64,000 nt of DNA from Bispira polyomma (Eukaryota). This document shows positions 33,701 through 57,740 of this stretch, piece by piece (positions within the stretch are counted from its first letter, which is position 1; each line of letters begins with the position of its first letter). The notes under the pieces were generated by a model. It searched no databases. It had not been told where the DNA came from and saw only the letters and a list, made by a program, of their open reading frames with translations. The stretch spans positions 43,834,001-43,898,000 of the forward strand of contig OZ287751.1 of NCBI GenBank assembly GCA_965649765.1, in the 5' to 3' direction. Both the position numbers and the translations under genes were made by a program.

Positions 33701-36700
33701 AGAGTTCAGCAAAAGTAGTGGCAAAACTGTTGAGATTAATACTTTGCAATTGAACAACACTACAGCTGTGAGTGAACAAGAGAAGATTAATAATACAGAG
33801 AATACAGCTATAACAAGAGATAGTAATTGGGGGAGCAAAGATTACTCCAGTAGTAGTAATAGACTGATTGATAATACAGAGAAAACAGCTATAACAAGAG
33901 ATAGTAATTGGGAGAACAAAGATTACTCCAGTACTAGTAATGGACTGATTGATAAAACAGACAATACAGCCATAACAAAATATAGTAATTGGGAGAGCAA
34001 AGATTACTCCAGTAGTAGTAATGGACTGATTGATAATACAGAGAAAACAGCTATAACAAGAGATAGTAATTGGGAGAACAAAGATTACTCCAGTACTAGT
34101 AATGGACTGATTGATAATACAGATAACACAGCCATAACAAAAGATAGTAATTGGGAGAGCAAAGATTACTCCAGTAGTAGTAATGGACTGATTGATAATA
34201 CAGATAACACAGCCATAACAAAATATAGTAATTGGGGGAGCAAAGATTACTTCATTTCTAGTAATGGACTGATTGAAAATACAGATAACACAGCCATAAC
34301 AAAAGATAGTAATTGGGAGAACAAAGAGTACTCCAGTACTAGTAATGGACTGATTGATAAAACAGACAATACAGCCATAACAAAAGATAGTAATTGGGAG
34401 AACAAAGATTACTCCAGTAGTAGTAATGGACTGATTGATAATACAGAGAAAACAGCTATAACAAGAGATAGTAATTGGGAGAACAAAGATTACTCCAGTA
34501 CTAGTAATGGACTGATTGATAAAACAGACAATACAGCCATAACAAAATATAGTAATTGGGAGAGCAAAGATTACTCCAGTAGTAGTAATGGACTGATTGA
34601 TAATACAGAGAAAACAGCTATAACAAGAGATAGTAATTGGGAGAACAAAGATTACTCCAGTACTAGTAATGGACTGATTGATAAAACAGACAATACAGCC
34701 ATAACAAAAGATAGTAATTGGGAGAACAAAGATTACTCCAGTAGTAGTAATGGACTGATTGATAAAACAGACAATACAGCCATAACAAAAGATAGAATTT
34801 GGGAGAACAAACAATACTCTAGTAGTAGTAATGGACTGATTGAAGATGCAGTTAAAACTAAGAAGAATACTTTTGAGACAGCTGATAGTATAGTCAAAAC
34901 TACTGAGACAGAATGGGGAGGGAAGAACTTTACTGTTAGTAATAAAGATCACAAGAGTAGAATTAATACTATGGAAACAATGGAGATGATAAATAACTCA
35001 ACTGGATCTAATCAAGATAGAGGGACAGATGATACACCTCAAACTATAGAAGGTATTCTGGGCTTCAAAGATTCAGCAGTTACCACCAGTGAAGGAGCAA
35101 TCGATGGTAAAACAAACACCATGTGGGAAAAGAATGAGTCCATCATAAGAAGCCGTAGTAAAGGGATTAATAGTACAGCCAAATATAACCAAAGAACTTT
35201 GGCAATGGATAAGTCTACTGCTCATAGTAATGACAGAGTAACCAGTCATATCGTGAGAACTATGAGAAGTGCTGTTACTACTAGTGAGACAAATAAAAGT
35301 TCAGCTAAAACTTTAGACAGTAGTACTTCCATTAATAACATGAGCATAAATTCTAATAGCAACAATGCCAGCACAACAACTTTAACTATGGAACCAATTA
35401 AGAGTAACCACTCATTAGCTACAGATATTAAAGGCACTAAAGACAGCACAGATGTTACTGATAAAAGTATATTTAGTATAAGAAAGCGTAATACAAAGTC
35501 TCAAATGTTTAATGCAGATGATACTACTACTGTTAACACTGGTATTATGACTAATGATAGGACTACTGACTCGAATACGGAAAGTTTAGCAATATACCAG
35601 ACTGGTTATAAAACAACTGATGATCTCACAACTGACGGGGAGTTTAGTGGTTTAGAAGTAACAGGCCATTCTAGTAATAGTAAATTTAACAGAATGACCG
35701 ACATAACTACTAATAGCCATGATGAATTACATGAAACTACTTACTCTGCACCAAAAAACAGTTTTAATTACAATACAGATATGCATGATGACAAAGTAAC
35801 TCTCTCCACCAGTGATGTAAAAGAAAGTTTTAACCCTGTGCTTCATTTAAGCACAAATGTGGACAATATGAAAGTGGAACAATCTGCAATGCCATCAGAT
35901 CACAGTAGCGGGGGTAATATAAGAACTGGTAGTACTAGTAAGAGTACCACTAAGGGTATGTGGTCTTATAATGATAGACTAGAAACATTGGCAGAAGGTG
36001 ACACTGTGAAAATAGACAGTGATAACACTGGTGTAACATCCACTTTAGAAACTTTGAATTCAGATGTCAGTACTGGTTTTTCGAAGATCCCAAACATTGC
36101 CACTATGGTAAGAGATACTGATGAGCTACACGTTTTTACAAGTGGAAATCTAAAGCCTACTCTGGAGTTTCTGACATTGGAGAATGATGATATTTTAGGT
36201 GAAAATATGCCGGGTGAATTATCCAGTGAAAGTACTGAGAAAACTACAAACTCAGAAGAAGACACATTTACTACCGAGATGGCTAGTAAGGGCAATAATT
36301 CCATAGTAAAAACAGTAGGGAATGTTAAGGTCATTACAAAAGATGCAACAGAACCTTCTATAATAATACCTAGTTCTTTACATGATGATCAGACTACAGA
36401 TATTACTAAGAAATTTGGTAGGTATGATTTTATGGTCAAAGATGACACTTCTACTGGTTCTGTGGATATGTCTGACAGTACTGAAGGTTTAAATAAAGAT
36501 ACAGATTTGGTTAGAAAAGTGGGTATTGTCAGTGCTAAAACTGATACGACTTCTGCCAGTATGGAAACAGTAAGAGGGAGCACTAAATCCATGCACAGAG
36601 GTAATTTGGATGGTCAAATGTATGGTATCAGTAATATTCCAAATAGGCAGATAAAAACAACAAATACTTACGCAGCAGATGCATTTCAAAGCAAACTCAG

Positions 36701-39700
36701 TGACTCTACTGACATCCCTAAATCAGATAGTGCTGCCTTATTGGCTGATGGAAATACTAGATTCCAAACTGGTGATACCACAAAAAGTTACTTATTTCAT
36801 AAAAGTACTGAAACCACTAAGGAGTTGAGTACAAGTGTGGACTCTGTTGTACCTAATGGTGATGCAGAGACAAGTACAATGTCTGCTAAAGTGTATTACA
36901 ACAATGTCAAATCAAGTGAAGGTACAGAACCAGTAGCAACAAGTGAAACTATAAATAGCTGGTCTGGTAAGAGTAGTAACAGTATCATAACATTGGGTGG
37001 AACCAGTAATTCCGTATCAGAAGATTACATTGTCACTACCAGTTTCATTGTAAGTACTGATGCCAAAGAACCACTTGACTCTGATGGAGAAGTTACTTAT
37101 AGTGGTGCTGTTATCCAACCTCGTAGTACACCAAGGTTTAGTAGAAATACAGAGGCTAAATTATCACATGCTACTCTTGAACCAGCCACTTCTACTAATA
37201 ATATCTTAATGGCACGGGCATCTCAGAGTACTGACCACTTTATGACCAATGAACATATCAATAGTGGAAGTATGACAAGTATTAGCAAAGGAAAGGATGA
37301 TGCTATACGTGGTACAATTACTGTGAGTATGATGTCAGTAGTCCCAGATGGTACTGACATTACAGTAAGTAGTGGTATCAATACAGTTGATACTAATATC
37401 AAGAGTACTGGTATAAGTACTACAAACACTAATATTAGCACTATGAACCTAGGTGATATTGATGTTACAGAAAGTGATGGTATCAATACAGTTAATACTG
37501 ATTTCAAAAGTACTGATATAAGTACTGGAAACAATGATATCAGCACTATTGTCCCAGGTAATATTGATGTTACAGGAAGTAGTATTATCAATATAGTTGA
37601 TACTGATATCAGGAGTACTGATATAAGTACTGGAGACACTGATATGACCACTATAGACCTAGGTGATATTGATGTTACAGAAAGTATTGGTATCAATACT
37701 GTTCGTAGTGATTTCAGGAGTGCTGGTATAAGTACTGAAAACACTGATATCACCACTAGGAACCTAGATGGTATTGATGGTTTGGAAAGTAGTGGTATCA
37801 ATACAGTTGATACTGATATCAGGAGTACTGTTAAAAGTACTGTAAACACTGCCATGGAAGCAAGTGATATTGATATCAGCACTATTGACGTAGGTAATGT
37901 TGAGGTTGGAAATACAGATACTATTATTACAGAAAGAGGTAATACTAAAATAGGTGTTATGACTATTGAAAGCACTGAGATGACTGCAGTGAAAGCTGTT
38001 GATACCACAGGGACTGTTGATATTGAAAGCCCTGAAACTGGTACTACAGAAACTGATAGTAGAAGTTTCGATGTCAGTACTACTAAAAGTGGCTATATTG
38101 ATGCTAGAGATACAATGGGTAGAAAAACAGAAAACATGGATATTAATCTTAAAAGTACTGAGGGTATAGAATCTGGTAGAGTTTTAACGAGAATAACAAC
38201 AGAACAAACTGCTGGTGTTGATATTGGAAGTACAAATATTAGAGACAGAGATGGCATCCATATAACAACAGCTTCTGGTATCACAAAAACTGGTAGTGGC
38301 TATGATCAAAGTACTTTCTTTAGTGATTCTACAGTAGCAGTGAAATCTGCAATTGCAGATAGTGTTAGTATTGATGGTTTAATTGGTGGGAGTGCTATTA
38401 TTAGCAAAAGTGGAACATCTACCTCCAGTGCAGGAAGTAACACAGAATATATACTGACTAACCATATTGGTGATATGGTTACTGAAGATAATCTAAATCC
38501 AACAGTAAATACTTACCACAGGGTAGGAGATAGTGCTGATCATACAAACAGTGAGGTCATAAATTATATGACTACTGGAGATACTGTGAGAATAAGCAAT
38601 GGTACTGAAATTACAGGTACATTTAATACAAGTACAAAAAAATCAGGTTCAAATATTAGAAATGATACTATTCTTCAGGATTTGATTCAAAGCGTAGATC
38701 TAATGAGTACCAGTGCATCTGTTGATACAATAGGTGACATGAGTGGCAGCTTTACAACTGGAAGAACTAATGAGTTATTGCGAAATATTGATGTCACAGT
38801 TGGAGAAGATTCTACAAAAGTAGACATTGATATCACTCGTGATAGAACATCTGGTCTAATTGACAAGTTACAAGAAAGTACTTATTCCATGACAGCAAGG
38901 TATAGAAGTAAAACAGACACTAAGATCACTGAAACCATGAGTCAGTTTGGTACAAGCACTATCTCTATGGTAACAAATAATGCTGCCAGTAGAGGCATGG
39001 ACACCAAAACTGACAGAACGGGTTGGACAGTAAATGATGCTACTAAATCTTTGGTAACAGGTGGTACTGTCAATACAGTTGGTGACATTCATCACAATAG
39101 TACAGATATTGAATACACTGAAAATGCTACTACTTGGTGGCTAGAAGACCTAGATTTCTCAGTAGCAGGTGATAACACTGATGTATATTCTGGTACATCT
39201 GCAGGTACAACCAGGGCATTAGATGTCACTAGTGGATCTAGAAAGTCAAGTGACGTGGGTGTCACAGACATTGTTTATAGAATCAGAAATACTACCAGGG
39301 AGAGTAGCGTAATTATTACAGATGATCTGGTCACAGACAGTACTGACACTGCACCTCAAAGTGAATATCAACTGCTAGTGAGTAGTACAGATGTCATGTT
39401 AAAAGGTCATAGATTTAGTACCAATACTGACAACGCTGAAGTAACATATAGTAGTGACTCCATGGTTCTAGATACCATGCCTGCATTTGATAGTGAAGTG
39501 ACAAGTGATAGCAGACTACCAAGTGGTAGTACAGAGAGTCTAGTAGCAGGTGATACTGTCAGTACAAATACTGTTAATACAAATAGTGCAAGAGTGTACA
39601 CTGATATATTAACAACGACAAGCCTGACTGATGATTACACAGTTACCAAATCTACAGAAGTAACAGTCACTGACAGAGTCACATCAGCAAGTTCTTTATT

Positions 39701-42700
39701 AGTACATGACACTGTAACTGTAAAAGATCTGGACATAAGCAATAGTGTAAGTGATGATTTAGGGAAATTGTCAACAAAGAACCATACAACAATACCTCAT
39801 GTTGTTTTAACAGTTTCTACTGAATCAGATAAATCAAAAGTGAGTAATAACAACTTAATTGATGCCACTGAAGACCCCCAAAATGTCACCTGGGTCCTGA
39901 TGTGTGAGAAACTGATGTCATTGAGAGCTCAATTGTTTGCACTAAGCAATAGAGTTTGTGGGCAGACTGGGGATGTATCTGATAGAAACTGTTCAGAGAC
40001 AACATCAGTAGATAGTGTCAATGTGAGTGCCTCAGAAAGCATCGTAAAACAAACAGGTTATGTGCTTCAGATTATACATACTGAACAACCCATGGCCACT
40101 GGTGAAATGACTGATGATACTACAATACATCATGGAATAGAAGATGATAGAAACCTAACAGCGGATGGGGTGTTTGAGGCTAGTACTGATATCATTTCTA
40201 ACTATGTCACTAGTGCTTTAGACACAAAAAGCGATATCGATATTTCTAGTCCTACATTTTCTGACAATTATATCAATGAAGCAACAGAAATCGAATACAG
40301 CACCCCAGTTTCTAGTCCTGAATTTGAAGATAGTTCTTTTACTGTAGAAACTGAAATCAGTCGAAGTACTACTGGTAAGTTAGATGAAACCCCAGTTGGT
40401 GTTTCTCTAGTTGAAAGGGGCGATACAGCCATTGCTGATTCTATTTTTAGAATTGGACCGCTTATTGTTACTACCACAGATCTTGGGGATACGACTGACA
40501 TTGCTACTTCTGAGGTAGGGGACAGCTTTGTGTCATTATCTAACAAAGATATATACAACACAATAACTGTCAACAGAGATACTAATCTCATTACTGCAAC
40601 ACCAGTGGTAAGAGACAAACCTAAAATAATTACTGCTGATGTAGGAGACAACTCAGTGACTATGACTTTAACCAACCCTAGCACAACAAAATATGAGGAC
40701 AGTCCTCTTAGTGAAACTCAAAATGTAGAGGAAGGACTAAGTACCATACATACCAACTTAAAAGTCAAGCACATGTCTACTGCTATAAATTTAAGCAATA
40801 TTACGGAGTCTTTTTCCCCCAGACTAGAAAACACGTACCAGACCACAAGCCCAAAGTTACAGAACAACACAATCAGTACTGACATAGCCTTAGAAAACAG
40901 TTCATTGGACAACTGGTTTGAATTAAACTCAACAACAATTTCTAAGGCACAAAATGATTCTGCCAATGTTACTTTGTATTTGAAAGACCATTATGTCACA
41001 AGTTCTTTGCTAGAAACCATCAGTGTCAAATCAGGAAACTATGATACTTCTACAGTTCCTCAGGAAGGACACTCGTACATCACAGCTTCTGAAAAGAAAA
41101 CAGTGGATGTCAAAAAAAGTTCAACAAATACGGAAATAAATGCTGGATCTCCTTACTCCAGTCCTGGAACAAGACAGCACACAGTTGTTGAGTCTAAAAT
41201 AGTGCATTATTTAACATCTGTTGGAGCTCAAGTAGAAAACGTCACCACTGAAAGTATAGACTCAGAAAATAAAACCATCAGTCCATTACATTGGGAGAAC
41301 AACATAACTACTATAAGTCCACAGTCAGGGGACAATATCACAGTGATAACCTTTCTTGTAGAACAAAACCTCACCACAATTATGACACAATTAGAAAATA
41401 GCTTTGCTGCTATTGCTGTAGAGTTGAAAGAAAGGTTTGCTGACATGTCATCTCAGTTAAATGATAATTTCACCACCATCACTTCAAACTTAAAGGATAA
41501 TTTCACAGCTATATCCTCACATTTAGAGGACAATCTAACACCTATCTCAGTGTATTTAGAGAAAAGCTTTTCCAATATAACATCACAGTTAGCGGATAAC
41601 TTTGCCACTATTATATCACAGGTACAGAAAACCTATGTCAATAATAATTTACAGCCAGAAGACATTTTTACCACTGTTTCATCAAACGTAGATGTCTTGG
41701 TTGTCATTAGTTCGTTTTTAGAAGACAACTTTGTTAATATCACATCTCAGTTGGAGAACAACTTCACAACAGTAATGTCACAACTAGGTACAAACCTTAC
41801 AGTGGTCAGATCTGAGTCATATGACAGCCAAGGAGTTACCGCATTAGTGGACACAGTTACAAACGCTATACCATCAAGTTCACAGGACATCTTTGTTGAT
41901 TCAGATTCAAACAATACCACTACATCCGCGGAGAATATAGTATCAAGTGGTGCATTGACCTTAGAGCAGACAAAGCCAAAGGCTAATGATTCTACCCTTG
42001 ATTATACATTATCAAGTATAATTCAAGAATCAGCTACTACCAATGATGGATCTACCGTTGAAATTGATTATATATCAAACAGGAAAAGCCCTAAACTACT
42101 AAACAACATCTTTACGCCAATTTATGACAAGTCAGAGTATAACTCTGCAGACCTTATGTCAACTTCACAAACATTTAGAAGTCATACTGCTGGCTCAAAT
42201 TCAGCAATACATATTAGCAAAAATGAAACACCGGAACCATTGTCATCTGTTACACCAGAGGCTCTTGGTAATAACAAATTTGAAAAGCAGACCACAAGTG
42301 CAATACCAGAAAGTGAAAGTACTGAGCACAATAAACTAAGAACTATTTCTTTGAGTAGTACATCACTGGGGAAAGAATATCCTATAAATAATATATCACT
42401 TGTGAGTAGTAAGACTGAGGACAAATTCAATGATTTTCAAACTGTATATACAAATTACTCTGATTACTCAGACAATACTGTTGCTGTAAGAGTCAACACG
42501 ACAGAAAGTTACAAGTCTAGTACATTTATTTCAACTGAATCCTCCAGCAAAAGTTTTTTGACACCAGATGCTGAAATATTCAGTCCAATGGATCAAAGGA
42601 ATATTTCTTTTGAAGGTGAAACATCTACCTTTCAGACAAACAGTAATAGAAACATTGCATCCAATATAACAACTAGTTACAATTCTACTAAAAGTTCAGA

Positions 42701-45700
42701 CATTAGCCAGAATGTCACATATAAACCCTCTACTGCTCCTGTGACAAAAACCTCTGATCGCAAATCTGCCTTGGGTAGTGTATTTACCATGTCATTTGAT
42801 GATAATGATCAAGCAACAAGTGTAGCCTATGTAAAAGAAAGCAGTGACAAGTGGAAGACACCAATGGATGATCAGAGTGCTAAAACTATGTCCAAAACCA
42901 GTTTACCTCCAATGAGTCAAACCATGGAAGGGAAGTTTCAAAGTACTCACTCTGTCAGTGGTACAGAAATTCCATCCGCAAGGTCATCAGGGAGCAACAC
43001 AAGCCCTGCTCCCATCGTGGCTGTTCATATTATTAAAGAAATACATGATCAAAAAGTGACAGGAGCAAATATGGTTAGATTAGTGGACACGCAGGCTTAT
43101 CCTACTAGAAATGGGATAGATTCCTCTACTGATGACTACAAAAATACATCTTATAAGACTGACAGTGGAAGTTCAACAGAACATGAAACTACTGTTATTG
43201 ATAGAGATGTCTTTAAAACTACAGAGAATTTAGAAACGGTAACAAGCAGACTGATTGAGAATTCAGGTGTTGATGCCAAAATTACTGCAACATACAAAAC
43301 CAGTGCAGATAAATTCAGATTAACTTATCAAGAAAACAGCATATCTGCTGAACAAAGTGTAACTGGATATATTGGGGAAAACGCAAGCTCAAACATGCCT
43401 GTAACTGTGTTGAATATTTCAAAAAGGTTGGACTTATCTGATGACAGCTTTTCCAATTCAACTAGAACAGTACTTGACAGTGCAGATGATGATGTACATG
43501 TGAATTCACCCACAGGTCATATCCTTTTCTCAGAACCTACCAGTTTGCAAACATCTAGGTCTACAGGCACATTAGACTTCAGTTTTGAGAATAAGTCCTC
43601 CATGGAACCTATGAATACTTCATTTCTTGATGTGAAAACTAACAGCTCAAGTGTTAGTGAACCACTCATTATTACAACGTCTTCAAATCCTAACAGCACG
43701 ATAAATCACATTGATTCAGAGTGGAAAAATCAACGAGGTAATGACAATACAGAAAAGTACAGTACTCTTCAGCAGTTGCTTTCAACATCATCAGTAGTAT
43801 CACAGGCCACTGAAGATGTTTTGGACTTAAAGATTTCTAAAATAGTTAATACAGAGGGAACAGTATTAGATCATTCTCCTGGAGAGACTTTAAAAAAGAA
43901 CCCAGATTCTCCGCCGTCATCTACAATAGAATATTTGTCAGCTTTAGTATCTTCTTCTACATCTATGTCCCAATCCACTGAAGATATTTTGTATGCAAAC
44001 AATATGAACACCACAGAAACTACTGAATTGTTGGAGTCTTCTTCAGCGGAATCTACAATACATGGAAAATCACATTCTTCTCCAATGACTGACCATATGA
44101 ATTCCCCAAAGTCAGTGGAAGCTACATCTGCATTATATCCTTCAAAATATGCATCAAAGAATACAGAAGAGTCCTCTGAAGCAGAAACTACAGGACTTGA
44201 TAGTTTGCCTGCAATTTCATCTCTATCTAGTGCATCAGACTCTCAGTACTTGTCTCAAAAGACAGTTGACAACAACAATGTTGTGACATCAGCTTTACCG
44301 AGAAAGGTAACGTCAAATGTTCCTTCTAAAGTTAAAACTTACATGGATACACAGCATATGGTAGATGACACAACAACTTTCTCAGTGGATCCTACAACAA
44401 AAGGATTCAAGCTCCTTGAAAAGAAATTCCTGTCAAACATGGGTGAAGCAGCTCTTTCAACTTTATCTACTATATTTACTACACAAATCACTGACATGGA
44501 TATGGCAGAAACAGGTGTAAACTCTCAAGAAAACATCTCCACAGTTTCCTCCATAAACGAAACATTCATGGGAGGAAACCTACTTCAGAAATTAAAAGAT
44601 CTTAGTAATAATACCAAAGTGAACCAAAGTAATATACACAGTGTGTCGACAGCTGTTCCTATAAGTGACTCAAATTCAAAGCAAAAGTCTGCACACATCT
44701 TACAGGTTTGTATAGACAGGTATAAACAGAGGAAGCGATTTGAACAACGAAAACAGAAATCCGCAGAAAAGGTCACTCAAAAATGGTTGTCTTTACCAAA
44801 TGTGTTATCAGTACAAACTACGACCGTGTCTTATGATCATACTGAAGAGGATTCCACAGAACATGCAGCTGTTCATGTGCTGGTTGATACCATGGACCAA
44901 AACCTGGATGGTAATAGCTTTCTCAGACCCTGCACATAAACTCAGCACCAGAATATATGTAAAGCATGGGCTGGTATGCTCGAAATAGTGCACTCGTGTT
45001 TAAACTTCATACTCAACTTAAATATAGGCCATGTGGAAATCCTTGTACATTGAAATGACCTGTACTTGTGACCATTCGTTTTAATAGAGCTTTTAACACT
45101 GACTTCAAATATCAAGTCAGGTTTTAGTTATGTTTACCCATGTGTCCATGATTCCAGATTTAAGTAAGAATTTTAGTCGAGTATACCTTCGAGAATACAG
45201 CCCTAGATGTTCACCAAACATATGAATAGTACACACATTGGGCATGATCTTATGTCAAGGCTTGTGTATGTAATTAAGTATCGACTCTCTGTCTTTTATA
45301 TTTAAAATTAAATTACACCCGGGGATTTTTCCTCTGAACAAAATGGCCACTAATGTCAAATAGTGCACACTTATATAAAGTATTGAAAACAACCACATAT
45401 GTATACGTATAACTGTTGGGGTGTAATTTAAATAGGTTAGAGCCCTTTGTATGTGTTCTCTTTGAAAATAGAACACAGTTAATGACTCAGTCTCTTCAGA
45501 ATGTTGGTAACTGTACTCTATTGTCAAAGGGAGACCACTAACATGGACCCTAACTTATACTTAGTATAGCATTTTTATAGATGCAAATTTTATTACTTGC
45601 ATGAATCAAGGTTTTCGACCAGGGCATGTCATTATAATAATCTTGCTCATTACTTATATCAATGTGGATAATGTCAGCACAGTAATATAATAAAAAATAG

Positions 45701-48700: not shown

Positions 48701-51700
48701 AAATTAACCCACAAAAATCTAAATTTATTACAATCATATAAGTGGACATTTTCATAATTACACAAGAAATATAAACTGTTAAGACCTTATTAGATAAATG
48801 ATTATAAGCTACATGTAAAATTAGAAGTATGTATTCTATACAAGTTGTAACTTATATTTTCCCCACAAAATAAGGAAAATCTTAAAGAGCCCAAGTGCTC
48901 AATTCTGTGGAATATGGTAATTTAGCCTTTAGTAGTAGGTCAGCCCTTACTGTATCTTAGCAGTGTGATACAGTTGTTAATCCATAGATTCCTGCATTAA
49001 GTGTGATTAGTAAAATCTACTTCTAGCTTATTTATCAGAATTGCCACTATTAGTGCTATTTCTTCTAACTTCTGTGTATTTAAGAAGTTAAATATTCACT
49101 CACTGAACTGACAACTATTGGACTATTTAGGATTTATATTGACATTTAGAAAGTGGAGGAATTGATCGGTTCACTAATCTTTATCACCAGAATGATCAAT
49201 GAGATTGATATGTACACAGTACAGTCAGGTGATGATGATATATCTGCCGAAGTCACAAGCACTGACATAACATATTCTTCATTTGCTTCAAATGTGTATC
49301 AGAGACACAGCACAGTAGCGTCTTCGGTGGATCTAATTGCTAATGAAGAGACATTTGACATTACTAATGACTTTACCATTATGATCTCTGACAAGGGACC
49401 ATACAGTCCTCCAGTATATGGTCGGACCAGTTCGACCCTGCCCAGTGTTGTTGATGATGAGTTTGATAACACTGGTAAGGTAACAGGGAGTAGTTCTGAT
49501 GTTGATTTCAGTGGGAATATGGTTAATATGTTTGCAGGACCCACTAAAACCCACCTGGCCTCAGCGGGATGGTTTATAGCTCTGATGTGTGCCATCATCT
49601 TCTTACTTCTCATCTTGTTGATTGTATGCCTGATTAGGAGGAACAGAGGGGGCAAGTATCCAGGTCAGTCACAAACCTAGTTGTGTACCATCGGGAATTC
49701 AACTATTTCCGGCCTGTCTCATATTTTTGGCCTATAATGCTTTTATTATTTTATATAAAGCTTAAATTATTGGTAAAGTGAAGATAAAATTAATGTTTTC
49801 TGTATTTTCTATAAAAAAAACAATGGCTGGTGAGCTATGTCATTTTATTACTTGGTCATGATAAGAGGCCAAAAATACGGTGAAATTTTGAAACAAGACT
49901 TTTAGCATTTTAAATTGTTCTATACTGTAATTGTATCCAATCTGAAATGTTTAAAACAGCTTAAAAAACAATAGTATTATGATACAAGTACAGTAGAACC
50001 TCTATTTTACTGTCATCTTGGGAGAGTGAGAATTTGTTTAGATAATAAAAGGTCGTAAAATAGAAGTGGCATTTTGGTATAAAACAATAGCAAAAAAAAA
50101 AGGTTTGGGAGAATAAAATTAAGTTTGTAAAATCGAATCTTCGGATAAGAGAGGGTCGGATAGTAGAGGTTCTACTGTATACACTATTAAAATGATTATT
50201 TTTTTATAGAAGCTGTGTCATTGCTTTCTAAAGATGTAATTATCTTGGGTTGTAAATGTCTATGGACTAAATTAATTGTTAAAACGTTCTTTTTTTGTTT
50301 CGTTACAAAAGTTTAAAAAAATTGTGGTCCCATGTGACCTGTTGGTTATAGGATGTTGATCTGGTGATCAGGAGGTCTCTGGTTAAAGATTCTACTTGAC
50401 TTTTAGAATTATAATCAAATTATGTTAACAAGAGGATGTATTTGTATGTATATAATGATTACTCAGTGTGTTTGTGAAGCCTGTTAATTTCCCTTTTATG
50501 TGGAAAAACCTTTAACCTCACAAAGGCCTTTTCTTTCAAACTTGACCTTGTTTTGGTAAAAATCCTGTTTTAGTAGAGGTACTTCCCTAAACCGTCAAGA
50601 TTCGACTTAAAGAAGTTCAACGGTAGTTATAGACATCAGTAAGGTTAGAAGCAGCTTGAGTTAATATGTGTATTTTGTAAAATAGATCATAAGTTTATTA
50701 TACAAGTAAATCTCTGTCTATAGGTTTGAATCAATAGATTCTTTATAGTATTTGCCACTTGTTTTTTTCCATTGTACTACACATGGTTGAGGACAATTTT
50801 TGAACATAGGACAATTCTGGACAAAATTTAAAAAACTACTGCAACAAAAAAAGAATTAGAAAGAAATGATCATTGATAATCAGGTAAATACTTTTCCACT
50901 AGTTCTCCTTTTTATATTTGATTTTTGAAGCTTGTGTGCTATAGCTTCCAGAATTGCCTTATGTCCAGAATTGCCCTCACGGGTAGAGTATTTTAGTAGA
51001 TGTATAAAAACCGCTGATATGAGTAATGCTTTAAGGTTTGAACATGCCTTTCCATGTGTTTTCAGTGTATGAGAAGGAGAAGCTGCGTGGTAAGAACCCA
51101 GAGGATGAAGAGGAGAACTTTGGGGAGTACAACAACAAACAGTGAGTGTTTTATGTATAAAAAGATTGATTGGCAAGTAGGCAAAATCAAAATGATTAAA
51201 TGAAGCCTTTTCACAGGAAGAATTATGTTCAAAATCATTCCTCTGCCATGATTAATCTACCTCAGGTTATTTTAGGAAAGAATAAGAATACCTAGATTAT
51301 GATGTAATCTCATTTTGTTAGTGCTAATATTAATGGTCAGATGTATTACAAGTTAAAAAGCTATTCACCTGGGATAGAGGGGGAGGCGAAGTACCACTAT
51401 TAGAAAGCTTAGTCCATGGCAGTATTATCTGTCTACAGTAGATATGGTAGATTCTGTACAAGTTAAATGTCTAGCATCCTTTGGATTTAATTCTACTTAA
51501 TCTGCCTAAACTTAACATTTACTTAGTCAAACAGTAAAATTTGGATAACAATTGCTTAATTTGTAGTAAAATTTTACTAGAACTCGATGTACTTATACAA
51601 AGTCTACCATATTGACTGAGAAGAAAGAATTAGTTGACTATTGTACACAGATAATGAAATATACAGATTACTTTGAATTAATTTTGAAAGCTATATTGCA

Positions 51701-54700
51701 TTGTAAATTTGAGCTTTAGTGCCACTGAGTGTATTTTTTGTGAAGCAATAATATAAATATTTTAATGTTGTTTTGTGCACCCCAAGATTAAGTTCTTTCA
51801 GTTTATTCAATATTTTACCAGTATATTTGAGTTCAATATTTTTGCAGCCATGTTGTGTGTTAGAGGTATAAAATTTAACCTGTAAGTTTCTAGATGTTAA
51901 AGAGGGCCACGGTGGCCTAGTGGTTAGCAAGCATTGCGCTTTACAATCACTGGTCTCTCGCCTCTAGGCGGTGTGAGTTCGACTCTCGTCGATGCCTATG
52001 TGGGAAAGGTGGTAGTTCCTTACTGTGGGCCGCTGGTTTCAGTGCAGAACCTTGATCAACTGTATGCAGTGTTTCCTCCAGCGTTTCCAACTACCCGTCC
52101 CAATATAACCTAAACAGGTACTAGAGTGGACGTTAAATATCCCAATTCAAATTTAAATTCTAGATGGTTAAATACTTATGCCAAAAAAGAAACCAATATT
52201 TTAGAAATAAATAGCTTACGAAGAAGAACATTTCTTTTTTAGTCCAAATACCATGACTATCCCTTCTAAATGCCCCCCCACCCAACACACATTCACCTGT
52301 TAATTTATTTTTGGGATAGTTATAATATGTACAATTTAAAATTCACACCACTTTATCTCTTGAAAATTCTACCAGCACTGACACGTTGTACCATTTCTGA
52401 AGTTAAGAGCAGTGTGAACAAACTCGAGAAATGTCAGTCTAGTCATTTTAAATTTTACATTAAAAAAGAAGTGTAGGAGAAGCAGAATGATATTGATGAC
52501 AATAGATACATGTATATATGATTTTTGTGCATGACGCTTTCCTGATATTTTACTGGGAATTTTTATGGCAGCAAGAGCAGACATGCAATGGTCTTGTTTT
52601 AGTACATTATGATTGCCTTGCTTTCCTGAAAATTCTTGTATGTGTATAAAGGAAAGCCATCTTTAAGTATGTGTGCTTGTAAATACAGTAGCACTTGAAT
52701 TATCTAAACATTTTCGACTCTCCCAAATCACATTTTTCTATTGTTTCATACTAAAATGTAAATTTATGAACCTTCTATTATCCAAACGAAATCTTGCTCT
52801 CCCAATTTGTTCAGATAATAGAGGTTCTACTGTATACACAGCTATACACAGAAGGAGTTGAAGCAAGTCTAGTCAAAGTGTAAAACATACAGTCCACATT
52901 TGACAATATATATCTGTGTCTGGAACACTTGTTTGTTGTCCAGCTTTTGATGTATTGTTTTCTTGTTCTATGATTTTTTGTTTTGTTTCCTTCTAAAGAC
53001 CATACATGCCATTGGAAACCAAAGGGTAAGATATACAGCACCACCATCTGGTGGAAGTAGCCCTGCATTTTATTCAGTTTCCCTGCTTTATGTCGATACT
53101 CTAATAGAACACTGTGTAGTTTTTAGTATACATCAGATTTGGTATAACTCTATTTGGTATACAGTCATTCCAGACAAAGAATCAGTTCCATGTGCACATG
53201 TTTACTACAACCTCTATTTTATGAAGTTTTGTTGTCTTAATATTTGATGAACAAACACCCTTTCATTCTCCCAAATTTGAATTTTCTTGTTCCTTTAAAC
53301 CAAGGTGCCTCTTGTATTTTATAACCCTTCTATTGTCTAAAGAATATCTTTTTCTCCCAACCTATAAAGTATTACTGTCAAACACTTTTTGGTAGAACTG
53401 TTTGAAGTCATTTCCCTTTGAAATAAAGAATACTTTAAAGTCCCCAAATAGGCTTCCTTCTTTGTTTAAATCGACAATGTTAAGTAGAAATCCTGCTTTA
53501 AGTTTAGGTATTTCTTGTGGTCCCTCAAAGTCCGATTTACAAGGACTCCAACTGTATTTACACATTGGCCTAGTCACTTAGAGATGCTAAAGGACCTGGG
53601 TTTGCTCCCAGTCTGAGGTTTCCAAGTATGACCTAGTCCTGTAAGTTCTGATCACTATTCTTACTAATTCACAAGTGTAACCTACCATTATTTTGTACCA
53701 GTGCACAAGGGACTGTTTGATACTCCTATACCAAATCTACTGTATAAAGACAAACTCTTCTCAACCAACACCACCGCCTACAACCTTGCTTTTTTTCTAA
53801 CTCACTGCTTTATTCTTGATAGTATCAAGCTCAGCTTAGATTTATGCATAAAAATGAGTTTAAAAAAAGTATTTTTCGAAATTTAAAAAAAAATTTAAAA
53901 TGTTTTAGTGATACTTTTAGTTTTACTCAACACTTGAATTTAACAGACGTTCAAATCATGATTCCATTCATGGAAAATGTATATATTATTCAGAATTCCT
54001 TATGTTTCTAGTTTCAGTGAGGTTAGGGCTTGATAACTTGAAGAATGAACTCAATTCCTTATTATGTTGTTGTTTTTCCTGGGTACAGTTTGTTTTTATT
54101 GCACAACACCTTATTGCTTTTGCAGTCACTACCTCTTTTAATGTACAGTCAAACCCCTTTAAGTCAAACTCTGGAATTACCTGTTAAGTAGAAGCTATTA
54201 TAAGGTCCATTTGCTATATTTCTAATTTAAATTTACCTTGTTAAGTGTTAAGTGCTTAGTTTATGATAGAAAGTACTTAAAGTCACATTGAAATTTGTCT
54301 CATTAAAAATCAAAAAGTAAAGAGGTTCACTAACAGTTCCTGTGTTCTCCATTATATTAGCACCAAACATTAACCTTATAAGATGGCCTAACACTTGGTA
54401 TGTCTCTTCCACTGATATAGTACCTCATGCTGAATACCCCCTCATGCTGTTGTTGTTGCTCTTTTTACAGTTTTCTACATAACTACCAACTTGATCAAAT
54501 AACATGCTAAAAGAGTGTACACTTTAACTCTGTTATTGACATCCAAATTAAATGTACACGCAGACTGATAATAAAGGATGGACTGTTTTGAAATATATGT
54601 TGATAGACTTACCATTTGTAGTAAAATGGAAATTATTTTTGAATTTTAAAAAAGAAGAAACGCATTATTCTATATTCAAAATTCATATGATTTTTGATGC

Positions 54701-57700
54701 ATTAGTTATAACATTAGTACTTTTGCTTTATATTTTAATGGATACACGTTGTGAACTTCTGGATATTTAGAGCACAAGGAACCAAAATGTAGTAGCCACT
54801 TATTTGTAATTTACCAAATACAGAAAAGTATGGGTCTGAATCAAGAGAAAATTAATTATCATAAATCAATTTCTTGTGGTAACAAAAAACACACTAAGTT
54901 TGGGTCTAAGTCTTAACTTAAAGTCTTAATTTTGGTGTTTAATTTTGGCCGAAAAGTTGAAGATTTTGGTCTTAGTCCCAGTGACAATAAGAAAATATCT
55001 TTATTTAGTGTTAACTTGCTCTTAATATTAAGACTAACAGCAGGCAGTCTTGAATATTTTAGACATAAAAGGCTTTCACAGACCTTATTAGGTGACAAAC
55101 GTCAGATATGTGCGTATAGTACAACTTCTATTGTATAAATATATAATTATTTATGAACTCTCCAAAATTTATGTTTTCTATTGTTTTACACTAAAATAGC
55201 TGTTCTATTTGATAAACCTTCTATGATCCTAGCTAAATCTTGCTCTTCCAACATGTTTGGACAATAGAGTTTCTAGATCTGTTTCTCCTTACATTTCTGT
55301 CATTGTATATGTTGTTACAGTGATGAGCCACGTAGCTATGCTGCCCCTCCTAAAAACCTGCCACCAAATAACATAGACGATGAGCAGCCACTAGGGGGCA
55401 GTGAGTCCGACAGTATGGCAGAGTATGAGGACACAGACCCAACTAAGTTCAATGAGGACGGATCCTTTATAGGTAAGTGTATAGTGAGTGATAATAGGTG
55501 TATATAAACACACAGACCCCACTAAGTTCAATGAGGACGGATCTTTTATAGGTAAGTGTGTACTGGGTGATAATAGGTGTATATAAACACACAGACCCCA
55601 CTAAGTTTAATGAGAGCCGATCCTTTATAGGTAATTAAGTGTGTATAGTGAGTGATAATAGGTGTATATAAACACACAAACCCCACTAAGTTTAATGAGA
55701 GCTGATCCTTTATAGGTAAGTGTGTATAGTGAGTGATAATAAACACAGAGACCCCACTAAGTTTAATGAGGACTGATCCTTTATAAGTAAGTGTATACTG
55801 GGTGATAATATATAGGTGTGTACAAACACACAGACCCCACAAAGTTCAATGAGGACGGATCCTTTATAGGTAAGTGTATACTGGGTGATAATAGGTGTAT
55901 ATAAGCACACAGACCCCACTAAGTTTAATGAGGATGGATCTTTTATAGGTAAGAACATGTGTATAATTGGTGATAATAGGTGTATATAAACACACAGACC
56001 CCACTAAGTTTAATGAGGACGGATCTTTTATAGGTAAGTGTGTATAGTGAGTGATAATAGGTGTATATAAACACACAGACCCCACTAAGTTTAATGAGGA
56101 TGGATCCTTTATAGGTAAGTGTGTATAGTAGTGATAATATGTATATATAAACACACAGACCACACTAAGTTTAATAAGGACAGCTCCTTTATAGGTAAGT
56201 GTGTATAGTGAGTGATAATAGGTGCATATAAACACACAGACCCCACTAAGTTTAATAAGGACAGCTCCTTTATAGGTAAGTGTCTATAGCGAGTGATAAT
56301 AGGTGTATATAAACACACAGACCCCACTAAGTTCAATGAGGACTGCTCCTTTATAGGTAAGTGTGTATAGTGAGTGATAATAGGTGTATATAAACACACA
56401 GACCCCACCAAGTTTAATGAAGAAGCGCCTTTATAAGTAAGTGTATACTGGGTGATAATAGGTGTATATAAGCACACAGACCCACTAAGTTTAATAAGGA
56501 AGAATCCTTTATAGGTAAGTGTATACTGGGTGATAATAGGTGTACATAAACACACAGACCCCACTAATTTCAATGATGACAAATCCTTTATAGGTAAGTG
56601 TGATTATAGGTAAGCTGACCGTTTCCACCCCTATAAGTTGGCGGCTAGCAGCCCACTACATTTCTTACTCCCAGAGCCTATGTCTGTCGGAAAGCAGTCA
56701 ACACCCCTCAACCTATGCCCCATCTCTCCAATACATTCAGTAGATTTCGCGTCATCCTGTTGACAAACAAAGAAATAAGCCAACCAAACAAAGTATATAA
56801 ATTAGAAAATTTTATAAACTCTATAAAAACCTATATAATTCTTTTTATAAACTCTGTAAAAACCTATATAATTCTTTATAAAATAATAATGTTTAGAATA
56901 TTTTGTCACCATGTGTAAATGTTGTCTGTGTACATCCTAAAATATTGAAATTATGTAACAACAGTTGTTGTGGTACAAAGGTGTTATAGTTCTATAGTAT
57001 TGAGAGAAAAGTATATACGTCATGTGTAGAATGTGTATCTCTATGGAAATAATAACAACAGGAACTCCTTGAGGCAGATAATAAATATATAACATTTAGA
57101 TGTACATGTATATATATGTTACAGGCCAAATTAAAATCCAGTCAGATTTTAAATCCACCTAGGCGAGATTAAAAGTCTAATCTCGCCTAGGCGGAATTAA
57201 AATTTCAAGGTTTGTCTAATAGAATTTATTCTTGCCTAGGCGGATTTAAAATCTGCTTAGACCAAACTAAAATGTTGATTTTGTCTAGGCGAGATTAAAA
57301 TAAGGGGAATTAAAATGTCACATTGAGGCAAATTTTTATTATTTCATTCATGTATGCAGTAAAAGTATGGATAACAACCTTAAAATTTAACCTATTTTAT
57401 TTCTTTATAAAGAACTTTCCATTCATGGTTCAAAACATTAATTCATTCATGGAATATAGTAATTGCATTAATTATTAACATCATTTCTTTATAAAGCACT
57501 TTCATTCATGGTTTAAAACATTAATTCAGACACTACCAAGTGCTACCAAATCATTCCTGAGCACATATAAAAAAAAAAAGTGCACCAGGAAAGTCTTGAA
57601 GGATTACCAGTATGGAATTTTTGAAAATGCATACTCACACAGTGTAACTAATGTTTGTATTTATAGGACTGTATGGAGGCAAGAGAGATTCAACCATTCA

Positions 57701-57740
57701 ACCAGACGGCCAGCCTAATGCACTGTCCACATTTGTGTAG
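590..57740 (+). CDS. Nrg: L1CAM-family cell adhesion molecule (neuroglian/NrCAM-like), 5'-partial multi-exon gene: Ig2(C-half)-Ig3-Ig6, 5 FnIII, TM, ankyrin-binding cytoplasmic tail
   Basis: More than 20 GT-AG exons join in consistent phase. Translation shows Ig motifs (W...D.G.Y.C), FnIII motifs, [25 protein letters not shown] followed by [10 protein letters not shown], and the L1-family tail FGEY...DSMAEY...[11 protein letters not shown]. Confidence 0.95.
2008..3384. mobile_element. Non-autonomous Tc1/mariner-type DNA transposon
   Basis: ~30-bp imperfect TIRs (CCATATTCGACGTAATTAGCGCACA / TGTGCGGTAATTACGTCGAATACGG), TA on both sides, no transposase ORF. Confidence 0.75.
4304..4560 (+). mobile_element. 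tRNA-derived SINE, family 1, copy 1
   Basis: A-box-like GGTGGCCTTGTGATTAG, B-box-like GAGTTCGAATCCC, AT-rich tail. Near-perfect flanking duplication TTGCCACAAAGC/TTGTCACAAAGC. Close copy at 51903. Confidence 0.85.
5727..5870 (+). CDS. Ig2 C-terminal half, alternative exon B
   Basis: tacacag|GG...ACAG|gtatag, 144 nt, phase 1-1. Encodes [48 protein letters not shown]. Confidence 0.85.
6070..7555. mobile_element. Helitron/Helentron-associated-like non-autonomous element with an internal ~145-bp tandem array (5 units, about 6298-7030)
   Basis: Repeated TTGCAGCTATCATCACCAAATTTGTTG and palindromic AAGATGGCCGCCATGGCCGCCATCTT. CCGTCCG motif near the 5' end and ...CTAGTT at the 3' end. Class and outer boundaries are inference. 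Confidence 0.55.
9714..10323. mobile_element. PIF/Harbinger-type MITE
   Basis: Perfect 16-bp TIR TGCCGTGGTCACACTG / CAGTGTGACCACGGCA with TTA on both sides. CpG-rich interior. Confidence 0.8.
10595..10697 (+). CDS. Ig3 N-half exon
   Basis: gatag|GA...GGAAA|gtaaga. [35 protein letters not shown], phase 1-2. Confidence 0.88.
11570..11769 (+). CDS. Ig3 C-half exon
   Basis: ttttcag|T...CAAT|gtgagt. PTPRIHW...[12 protein letters not shown]...LQLRVQ. Confidence 0.92.
12222..12656 (+). repeat. ~61-bp tandem array copying the Ig4 acceptor and exon start (~7 units)
   Basis: Unit ACACAGTTTGTATTGTGTTTTAG|CTATGCCTGATTGGGTGGTAA...; the last unit runs into the real exon. Confidence 0.9.
12636..12754 (+). 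CDS. Ig4 N-half exon
   Basis: tttaag|CT...GGC|gtgagt. [40 protein letters not shown]. Confidence 0.9.
13286..13445 (+). CDS. Ig4 C-half exon
   Basis: catag|GAA...ATAG|gtttgt. [14 protein letters not shown]...[25 protein letters not shown], with the L1-type QCNASN.HG motif. Confidence 0.92.
13912..14511 (+). repeat. ~73-bp tandem array copying the Ig5 acceptor and exon start (~8 units)
   Basis: Unit ...TTTCCACTTGTAG|CTGAGCCCCCCACGTTCATCAGTAAGCC. Confidence 0.9.
14484..14677 (+). CDS. Ig5 N-part exon
   Basis: ttgtag|CT...CAG|gtattg. [38 protein letters not shown]...NLTIQ. Confidence 0.92.
15425..15515 (+). CDS. Ig5 C-part exon
   Basis: aacag|AGG...AGAG|gtaata. [30 protein letters not shown]. 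Confidence 0.92.
15970..16179 (+). CDS. Ig6 N-part exon
   Basis: cacag|AG...TCAG|gtaagt. [29 protein letters not shown]...[10 protein letters not shown]...NSLTIS. Confidence 0.9.
16149..17317 (+). repeat. 55-bp tandem array copying the Ig6 exon end and donor (~22 units)
   Basis: Unit GATACCAGAGATAACTCACTGACCATCTCAG|GTAAGTGGTGTAACATTCACACTA. Confidence 0.95.
17777..17866 (+). CDS. Ig6 C-part exon
   Basis: ttgtag|GT...AAAG|gtgagt. [30 protein letters not shown]. Confidence 0.92.
17970..19045 (+). repeat. 30-bp intronic minisatellite (~35 units)
   Basis: Unit GTATCTGAAGTACCCACTTATGAGAACCAT. Confidence 0.95.
19109..19282 (+). CDS. FnIII-1 N-part exon
   Basis: ccttag|AC...AGTG|gtaata. DRPEPPYDV...[20 protein letters not shown]. 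Confidence 0.92.
19857..20056 (+). CDS. FnIII-1 C-part / FnIII-2 start exon
   Basis: tctcag|GT...GAT|gtaagt. [20 protein letters not shown]...QLVIVWD. Confidence 0.93.
20953..21190 (+). CDS. FnIII-2 exon
   Basis: gtacag|CCC...GATG|gtatgt. [18 protein letters not shown]...[12 protein letters not shown]...GYSGED, an L1-family signature. Confidence 0.93.
21210..21436 (+). repeat. ~22-bp degenerate minisatellite
   Basis: Unit TCACTGAATGGTTGTAAT(G/A)AG. Confidence 0.85.
22248..22375 (+). CDS. FnIII-3 N-part exon
   Basis: tttcag|TC...AAG|gtatgt. [43 protein letters not shown]. Confidence 0.92.
22991..23249 (+). CDS. FnIII-3 C-part exon with RGKR convertase-type site
   Basis: tttag|ATG...GGAG|gtgagc. 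MVYWISG...[10 protein letters not shown]...[20 protein letters not shown]...FQTPEG. Confidence 0.92.
23540..24588. mobile_element. Non-autonomous TA-flanked DNA transposon (Tc1/mariner-pogo-like)
   Basis: TIR CAGTAGACTCTGT / ACAGAGTCTACTG with TA on both sides. Confidence 0.65.
24881..25003 (+). CDS. FnIII-4 N-part exon
   Basis: ttttag|TG...ATAT|gtaagt. [10 protein letters not shown]...[22 protein letters not shown]. Confidence 0.92.
25240..25543 (+). repeat. ~59-bp tandem array copying the FnIII-4 acceptor and exon start (~5 units)
   Basis: Unit ...TTCTTGTCCTCGTATTACAG|TGGGCAGTACA. Confidence 0.9.
25533..25697 (+). CDS. FnIII-4 C-part exon
   Basis: ttacag|TG...ATGC|gtatgt. LGSTHKVK...[20 protein letters not shown]. 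Confidence 0.9.
25913..26081. repeat. Fold-back inverted repeat with ~70-bp arms, MITE-like
   Basis: TCGTAGATGGTCGCGCACCCGTCAATTTGATGTATTGTGGGTA pairs with TACCCATAATACATCAAATTGACGGCTGCGGGACCATCTACGA. Confidence 0.8.
26091..26255 (+). mobile_element. Degenerate SINE (related 3' fragment on the minus strand at about 19365-19507)
   Basis: tRNA-like head and B-box-like GGATTGAATCCC. The TGTGGGAA..GTACTT..CACTGGTTT core matches the reverse complement of 19430-19505. Confidence 0.5.
26534..26662 (+). CDS. FnIII-5 N-part exon
   Basis: gtgtag|CC...AAGG|gtaagt. [43 protein letters not shown]. Confidence 0.9.
28116..28292 (+). CDS. FnIII-5 C-part exon
   Basis: acccag|GA...AAAG|gtgagg. [10 protein letters not shown]...[21 protein letters not shown]...; ends in phase 1. 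Confidence 0.9.
30352..30396 (+). CDS. Candidate 45-nt juxtamembrane cassette exon ([15 protein letters not shown])
   Basis: gtatccag|GT...GTAG|gtgggt, phase 1-1, open frame, GC-richer than its flanks. Confidence 0.6.
   Translation: MVPCQQKGQSLESE
31220..31243 (+). CDS. Candidate 24-nt microexon (GETGDDLG)
   Basis: ttctaatag|GA...GGTG|gtaagt, phase 1-1. Confidence 0.55.
31272..32660 (+). repeat. 66-bp intronic minisatellite (~21 units)
   Basis: Unit TACTGAATGATTCATACTGAGTACTTACTTTGAGCTTTACTCATCACTTTCACTCATTACTTTTAA. Confidence 0.95.
33268..33276 (+). CDS. Candidate 9-nt microexon (VYQ) sharing its acceptor with the giant exon
   Basis: (TC)n tract...cacccag|TATATCAAG|gtgaga, phase 1-1. Confidence 0.55.
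33268..44939 (+). CDS. Giant exon encoding a ~3,880-aa Ser/Thr/Asp/Asn-rich mucin-like segment (internal exon to 44910, or terminal exon to stop at 44939)
   Basis: Uninterrupted ORF 33297-44939, in frame with the phase-1 acceptor at 33267/33268. Phase-1 donor GATG|gtaata at 44910/44911 lies shortly before the stop. No Met plus signal peptide of its own. Confidence 0.75.
33785..34838 (+). repeat. Coding 81-bp (27-aa) tandem repeat x13 inside the giant exon
   Basis: Unit [27 protein letters not shown], frame preserved in all copies. Confidence 0.95.
46388..46399 (+). CDS. Candidate 12-nt microexon (GLKR)
   Basis: aaaacag|GTCTAAAAAGAG|gtaagt, phase 1-1, consensus donor but modest acceptor. Confidence 0.45.
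49538..49663 (+). CDS. Transmembrane exon
   Basis: tttgcag|GA...CCAG|gtcagt. [42 protein letters not shown]. Confidence 0.93.
49991..50177. mobile_element. ~190-bp MITE family (other copies at about 1518-1703, 11146-11250, 28911-29100, 52686-52832, 62231-62417)
   Basis: TIR CAGTAGAACCTC / GAGGTTCTACTG, TA flanks, similar interiors among copies. Confidence 0.75.
51066..51141 (+). CDS. Cytoplasmic exon 1
   Basis: ttttcag|TG...AAACA|gtgagt. [25 protein letters not shown], phase 1-2. Confidence 0.92.
51903..52157 (+). mobile_element. tRNA-derived SINE, family 1, copy 2
   Basis: Highly similar to 4304-4560. Flanking duplication TTCTAGATG(G)TTAAA. Confidence 0.85.
52999..53025 (+). CDS. Candidate 27-nt cytoplasmic microexon ([10 protein letters not shown] across junctions)
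   Basis: Long pyrimidine tract...ttctaaag|ACC...AAAGG|gtaaga. Phase 2-2 matches the flanking exons. Confidence 0.65.
55321..55472 (+). CDS. Cytoplasmic exon 2 (ankyrin-binding region)
   Basis: ttacag|T...ATAG|gtaagt. DEPRSYAAP...[25 protein letters not shown]. Confidence 0.93.
55432..56612 (+). repeat. ~80-bp tandem array copying the [13 protein letters not shown] exon end and donor (~15 units)
   Basis: Unit ACACAGACCCCACTAAGTTCAATGAGGACGGATCCTTTATAG|GTAAGTGTGTATAGTGAGTGATAATAGGTGTATATAAAC. Confidence 0.95.
57667..57740 (+). CDS. Terminal coding exon ([24 protein letters not shown])
   Basis: ttatag|GA CTG TAT completes FIGLY and ends in a class I PDZ-type motif STFV followed by TAG. Confidence 0.9.

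Follow-up and report, generated by a model that had tools for sequence, protein, structure and literature searches.

Vertebrate L1 carries a 12-nt, neuron-specific exon, RSLE, a textbook microexon controlling receptor traffic and one described from vertebrates. RSLE follows Y1176 so that a composite YRSL binds μ2, and removal of the exon or mutation of the tyrosine blocks both AP-2 binding and uptake (PMC2173551). An earlier note on a 64,000-nt stretch of the Bispira polyomma genome (contig OZ287751.1, 43,834,001 to 43,898,000; here the window) read a 27-nt exon at 52999-53025 as a cytoplasmic microexon supplying a YxxL motif at the position of RSLE. We asked whether this exon is real, whether it is likely to act on trafficking and how it relates to its vertebrate counterpart. 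If the trafficking reading and an independent origin both hold, the same splicing-controlled switch would have been built twice from unrelated sequence, and a conserved annelid exon supplying YxxL here would be an uncommon instance of convergence, alike in where it lies and in what it does biochemically. The impact would be moderate, as the case is confined to a single gene, its mechanism is of a familiar kind and its function is putative. No annelid L1 microexon was described in the titles or abstract openings of the papers listed by the searches, although supplementary cross-species microexon tables could contain one.

The L1 tail and its 27-nt exon

Most of an L1CAM/neuroglian gene lies within the window; in tblastn it aligns with P0265, a protein of a relative, in 22 segments spread over 583 to 55477, and it matches PF13882 above the cut-off. 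A 24-row tree places the window in an 11-row clade with Capitella (100/99), to which Owenia is sister (87/95), the branching within the 11-row clade being largely unresolved. By homology we assign the gene to the annelid-type L1CAM/neuroglian family, with an Ig and FnIII ectodomain, one TM segment and a conserved tail. On the forward strand the TM exon (49538-49663), located by tblastn to annelid-type L1 proteins, splice sites and translation, ends RRNRGGKYP in phase 1, which we take to be a juxtamembrane segment of the FERM-binding type. It is followed by a 76-nt cytoplasmic exon (51066-51141) ending FGEYNNK plus CA in phase 2 with donor GTGAGT, by the microexon, by a 152-nt exon (55321-55472; DEPR...DSMAEY...KFNEDGSFI) in the Pfam PF13882 Bravo_FIGEY region and by a last coding exon (57667-57740) which in the translated gene model completes FIGLY and ends STFV-stop. 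The presumed ankyrin-binding motif, formed by joining 55464-55472 to 57667-57674, is FIGLY and not FIGQY, and FIGLY or FIGMY is found in several relatives. Searched against PDB sequences, the exon downstream of the microexon gave no matches.

The microexon at 52999-53025 is AG/GT-flanked, lies in phase 2-2 and encodes (Q)PYMPLETK(G). Immediately upstream (52944-52998) is a 53-nt AG-free zone with a T-rich pyrimidine tract and an AAG acceptor, which reads ...CTAAAG, is 84% pyrimidine over -22 to -4 and has no TGC within 45 nt; the donor, from splice-site reading, is GTAAGA (53026-53031). The coordinates, the phase, the translation and the strong pyrimidine tract are thus as the earlier note gave them, and its claim that the exon adds a YxxL motif holds by translation. 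Joining 51141 directly to 55321 gives the skip product FGEYNNKHDEPR, in whose 109-aa tail neither YxxΦ nor dileucine nor NPxY is matched. With the exon included the tail is 118 aa long and contains a single YxxΦ, YMPL (53003-53014), whose Tyr is cytoplasmic residue 37 and is encoded by the exon, the FGEY Tyr reading YNNK with or without it.

A YxxΦ within an AG..GT candidate is no evidence for an exon, since 15 of the 139 frame-preserving candidates of 9-51 nt in this intron contain one and every one of 1000 shuffles of the intron yields at least one; we rejected YxxΦ content alone as exon evidence on these grounds. By an ad hoc splice score the microexon ranks first of the 139. With thresholds chosen post hoc at the microexon's own values, a candidate at least as strong arose in 54 of 2000 shuffles and one as strong that also coded for YxxΦ in 7, and candidates starting P-x-M-x-L, P[YHRC]M[PE]L and PYM[PE]L arose in 14, 1 and 0 of the 2000 respectively. 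This stretch of DNA shows no differences in three DNA runs of one study, which may include the assembly's own source; splice joints were absent among the rows listed for these runs, which behave as genomic DNA and are uninformative on expression. The decisive support for the exon comes from conservation and splicing in relatives (homologous exons at L004 and 22 other loci, and inclusion seen in relatives) and not from the motif, and we conclude that 52999-53025 is a real exon.

The window has several other features of note. A stop-free frame of 3895 codons on the forward strand (33252-44936; 29% Ser+Thr, 66 NxS/T sites, repeats of 81 nt and 105 nt) falls after the final FnIII exon and before the TM exon, and its phase-1 acceptor (33268) and phase-1 donors (33276 and 40374) would allow a 9-nt exon, a mucin-like cassette of 7.1 kb or the terminal exon of a secreted form. 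Relatives carry short optional Pro/Thr-rich inserts before the TM segment (23 aa in Owenia, 13 aa in P0124). The frame of the TM exon is itself open for about 130 Ser/Thr/Asp-rich codons (49150-49537, forward strand) upstream of the 49538 acceptor, with no in-phase acceptor there passing the filter. Tandem repeats occur at exon 3' ends at 55431-56602 (81 nt x14.6), 16149-17317 (55 nt x21.7) and 20030-20230 (77 nt x2.6), the first two copying the exon end with its donor site into rows of spare donors. In addition the same Ig-domain exon is found twice (583-711 and 5720-5869), possibly as a mutually exclusive pair, and a very high-copy interspersed repeat lies at about 51904-52157 in the intron upstream of the microexon, with a similar copy near 4300-4550.

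Conservation and splicing of the exon in relatives

Among the best 80 of 139 confirmed metagenome loci, an AG/GT-flanked exon that begins P-x-M-x-L precedes the acidic exon at 23 genomic loci. Where the intron is fully covered, a homologous exon, P-x-M-[PE]-L, occurs in all 12 cases that share the tail type of the window, many of them redundant samples, and in none of the 22 with another tail type. Three of these 22 hold a 24-nt phase-2 candidate encoding PRAREFP (L072:2348-2371, also in L073 and L074) which is possibly a diverged copy of the exon. In a second L1-family gene of the genome that holds the window (G000:C11:55598383-55603574, reverse strand), which has an FLGEY variant, the FxDY segment is likewise followed by an intron at this position, with no candidate microexon in it. 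Many of the loci are redundant, the distinct haplotypes numbering 16 with the window counted. L004 has a 21-nt exon, PYMELK(S), and the other 22 loci represent 14 haplotypes of a 24-nt exon that is 97% identical among them as against 42% in the downstream intron flank; across its versions the exon measures 21-36 nt.

Every version of the exon has the same P, M and L, and position 2 is Y, R, H or C. Tyr-x-x-Leu is present in four distinct sequences (the window, P0124/P0265, L004 and L047), and in 22 of the 23 exon-bearing genomic loci, these 22 forming one subclade, the Tyr is replaced by R, H or C. Codon 2 is the sole varying amino-acid position in this 24-nt subclade (P, M, E, L, K and Y are constant) and reads CGC in 11, CAC in 2 and TGC in 1 of the 14 haplotypes; CAC and TGC, we infer, are the two CpG transitions of CGC. 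At the same site Owenia has a 10-aa insert, QHVTPDLSYR, in two of five isoforms and this has no YxxΦ. As the Tyr-less subclade keeps the exon nearly invariant and the Owenia insert is without the motif, binding of μ2 cannot by itself account for the conservation of the exon, and the Tyr-less subclade has probably lost the sorting switch and retains the exon for another reason. With its natural Tyr, Arg, His and Cys versions the exon lends itself to testing which features of a microexon are preserved by selection.

Both include and skip forms are found among the proteins of relatives. P0124 and P0265, which are identical over 1058 aligned residues, include PYMPLDSTPPKS, and P0265 is presumably derived from mRNA because its 1301-aa frame sits on a 7.3-kb contig. 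A single cluster unites the skip protein P0126 with four include proteins, P0266-P0269 (PRMELKYS), at 99.5-99.9% identity where compared, and P0018, P0020, P0125 and P0127 are also skip forms. In the spliced contig L047 a PYMELKS exon is included, although a further 62-nt piece precedes it and terminates the frame. With this piece (L047:647-708) the tail is truncated and ends ...GYGSYSEL-stop, a terminal YxxL with no FIGQY, and a counterpart was absent from the window intron and from 26 other loci scanned. Judged from these contigs and proteins the exon is alternatively spliced in annelid relatives, and in B. polyomma itself it is presumably included as well.

Putative function and competing readings

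YxxΦ matches are common and often non-functional. Under the reading that we favour, inclusion would expose YMPL in a disordered tail, the exposed motif may be bound by the μ subunits of clathrin adaptors and such binding could bring about faster uptake or axonal sorting of L1. Two IRS-1 peptides, GYMPMSPG and DYMPMSPK, have been co-crystallised with μ2 (PMC5903866), and YMPL is a plausible μ2 ligand since these YMPM peptides bind in the crystals and Y-M-P-Φ fits the pocket. Set beside the known IRS-1 YMPM (PDB 5WRK/5WRL) and TGN38 YQRL signals, the annelid motif agrees with the IRS-1 peptides of the crystals at the Tyr and the two residues after it and has Leu at +3, a fit judged from sequence. 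In a C. elegans neuron a canonical YxxΦ gives axon-only localisation (PMC9071548). That the microexon is a YxxL trafficking switch in the Tyr-bearing lineages, its motif likely independent of YRSL, is on these comparisons a proposition for which we see the case as evenly balanced. More tentative, and in our judgement rather short of even, is the fuller version in which a neuron-specific annelid microexon would have evolved independently in the same L1 intron and would switch on clathrin-adaptor binding, at an intron that would be a hotspot for tail inserts across spiralians. The proposal in the earlier note that the exon gives the same switch as YRSL carries over insofar as YMPL is the sole YxxΦ of the tail and a plausible μ2 ligand; it does not carry over to the 22 of 23 exon-bearing loci with R, H or C in place of Y.

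The main reading and its rivals are not fully exclusive and the confidence attached to each is to be taken with that in mind. It is possible, though on balance doubtful, that what is conserved is a Tyr-independent P-x-M-x-L element, either a surface for docking FERM proteins or kinases or a spacer between the juxtamembrane and ankyrin-binding segments, and that the YxxL is incidental. The constancy of P, M and L in all versions while position 2 varies between Y, R, H and C is what such an element would leave, and an upstream basic residue with M-x-L presumably resembles MAPK docking motifs. The Tyr is nevertheless retained in four distinct sequences, and the 97% DNA identity of the Tyr-less exon includes synonymous sites, so that part of the constraint may be on splicing and not on the protein. 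The vertebrate RSLE region also binds ezrin, which would favour a FERM-protein surface, but that binding requires the Tyr (PMC2173555). A use of the Tyr other than sorting, with YMPL as a phosphotyrosine site for SH2 or PTB proteins, we consider very unlikely: YMPM in IRS-1 is a PI3K SH2 site, but p85 needs Met at +3 and the tail has no second YxxL for an ITAM-like pair. In L1 Y1176 is phosphorylated by Src and AP-2 binding is thereby blocked (PMC2173551), an arrangement that the μ2 model could itself take up, with phosphorylation turning the signal off. Slightly more remote still is the view that the exon is a silent relic or pseudo-exon in B. polyomma; the 54 of 2000 shuffles with an equally strong candidate speak for it, but the splice sites and frame are intact, PYMPL matches the included form in a relative and the P[YHRC]M[PE]L pattern turned up in a single shuffle of the 2000.

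Descent from a neural microexon of the bilaterian ancestor in the same intron, orthologous to RSLE and since diverged in sequence, appears improbable to us. It would account for the shared flanking segments, for the optional short inserts near the junction that are found also in Owenia, Haliotis, Gigantopelta, Octopus and Sepia, and for the resemblance of YMPL-[ED]-[ST] to YRSLES. Against this, the Tyr is in the exon in annelids and in the upstream segment in vertebrates, the mollusc inserts differ in sequence and boundary, none of the 22 introns that are fully covered and belong to another tail type has the exon pattern, and no candidate is present in the second L1-family gene. In amphioxus, furthermore, all 44 isoforms listed, out of 65 in the cluster, read YRPRES, with no skip form and no Leu, and the one hemichordate protein reads YKGKDS, again with no YxxL. 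With YxxL lacking here in amphioxus and in this hemichordate, convergence is the most likely origin of the motif. Deep homology, which the earlier note had offered beside convergence, is not borne out for the motif by these sequences or by the exon-encoded Tyr, and the annelid YxxL is likely to have arisen independently of YRSL. Should μ2 binding hold, the exon would act in the Tyr-bearing lineages as RSLE does, but it is not assignable to RSLE: it does not complete the FGEY Tyr, and it does not show the 12-nt length, RSLE-like sequence or continuity across intermediate taxa that would identify it.

Comparison with RSLE and other known systems

Our comparison with RSLE is one of proteins, the vertebrate intron positions and phase being assumed. 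In Ambystoma, FGEY[RSLE]SDNEE, RSLE is present in five of six isoforms and absent in one. The annelid and vertebrate exons are alike in that each is a frame-preserving cassette between the FGEY segment and an acidic segment leading to the FIGQY region, in that the YxxL gained by inclusion stands about equally far from the membrane (tail residue 37 for the YMPL Tyr and 33 for L1 Y1176; PMC2173551) and in that E/D and S/T come after the YxxL in two of the four annelid versions with Tyr. They differ in length (21-36 nt as against 12 nt), in that the annelid exon supplies its own Tyr whereas RSLE completes that of FGEY, and in the junction, which falls at Y+3/Y+4 in annelids and at Y+1 in vertebrates; sequence similarity is limited to the Leu, and the Tyr has been lost in one annelid subclade. 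The position is therefore equivalent to that of RSLE as regards the flanking coding segments but not as regards the Tyr inside the exon or the junction.

Short optional inserts occur near this junction in molluscs too, as protein data that may reflect either a cassette or a shifted splice site. Four residues, the FxEY Tyr among them, are optional in Haliotis and Gigantopelta, as are three near the junction in Octopus and Sepia, all unrelated to the annelid exon in sequence and boundary. In Haliotis P0183-P0195 and in Gigantopelta P0289 versus P0017 the four-residue insert toggles the FxEY Tyr, the homologue of L1 Y1176. The overall pattern fits an old intron that has repeatedly gained short inserts. 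Lineus differs in having two versions of the whole tail past the junction (P0031 versus P0181/P0182), which suggests duplicated alternative last exons.

Splicing alters the L1 tail in other invertebrates as well, including Drosophila Nrg167/Nrg180 and C. elegans SAX-7. The idea of an optional YxxL exon in SAX-7 was unsupported in the literature searched and was set aside. Isoform-specific FIGQY and PDZ ends have been described among invertebrate L1 tail isoforms (PMC4384726), and in another description isoforms differ by 9 additional nt where the last exon begins (10.1101/2021.01.25.428117); the difference from the annelid case is that the Drosophila and C. elegans tail isoforms, in what is described there, have no cassette exon at this junction.

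The annelid exon also invites comparison with the neural microexons that depend on eMIC/SRRM3/4, to which it is similar in being short and frame-preserving with a long AG-free zone (27-64 nt upstream of the exon in all 24 copies). UGC motifs lie within 20 nt of the acceptor in the R/H/C subclade of 24-nt exons, a further likeness, whereas the window copy is without these nearby motifs, having no UGC within 45 nt of its acceptor, and L004 has one only at -45. Between fly and mouse only four eMIC-dependent exons are reported at the same position, and three of these four were read as convergent (PMC8797185).
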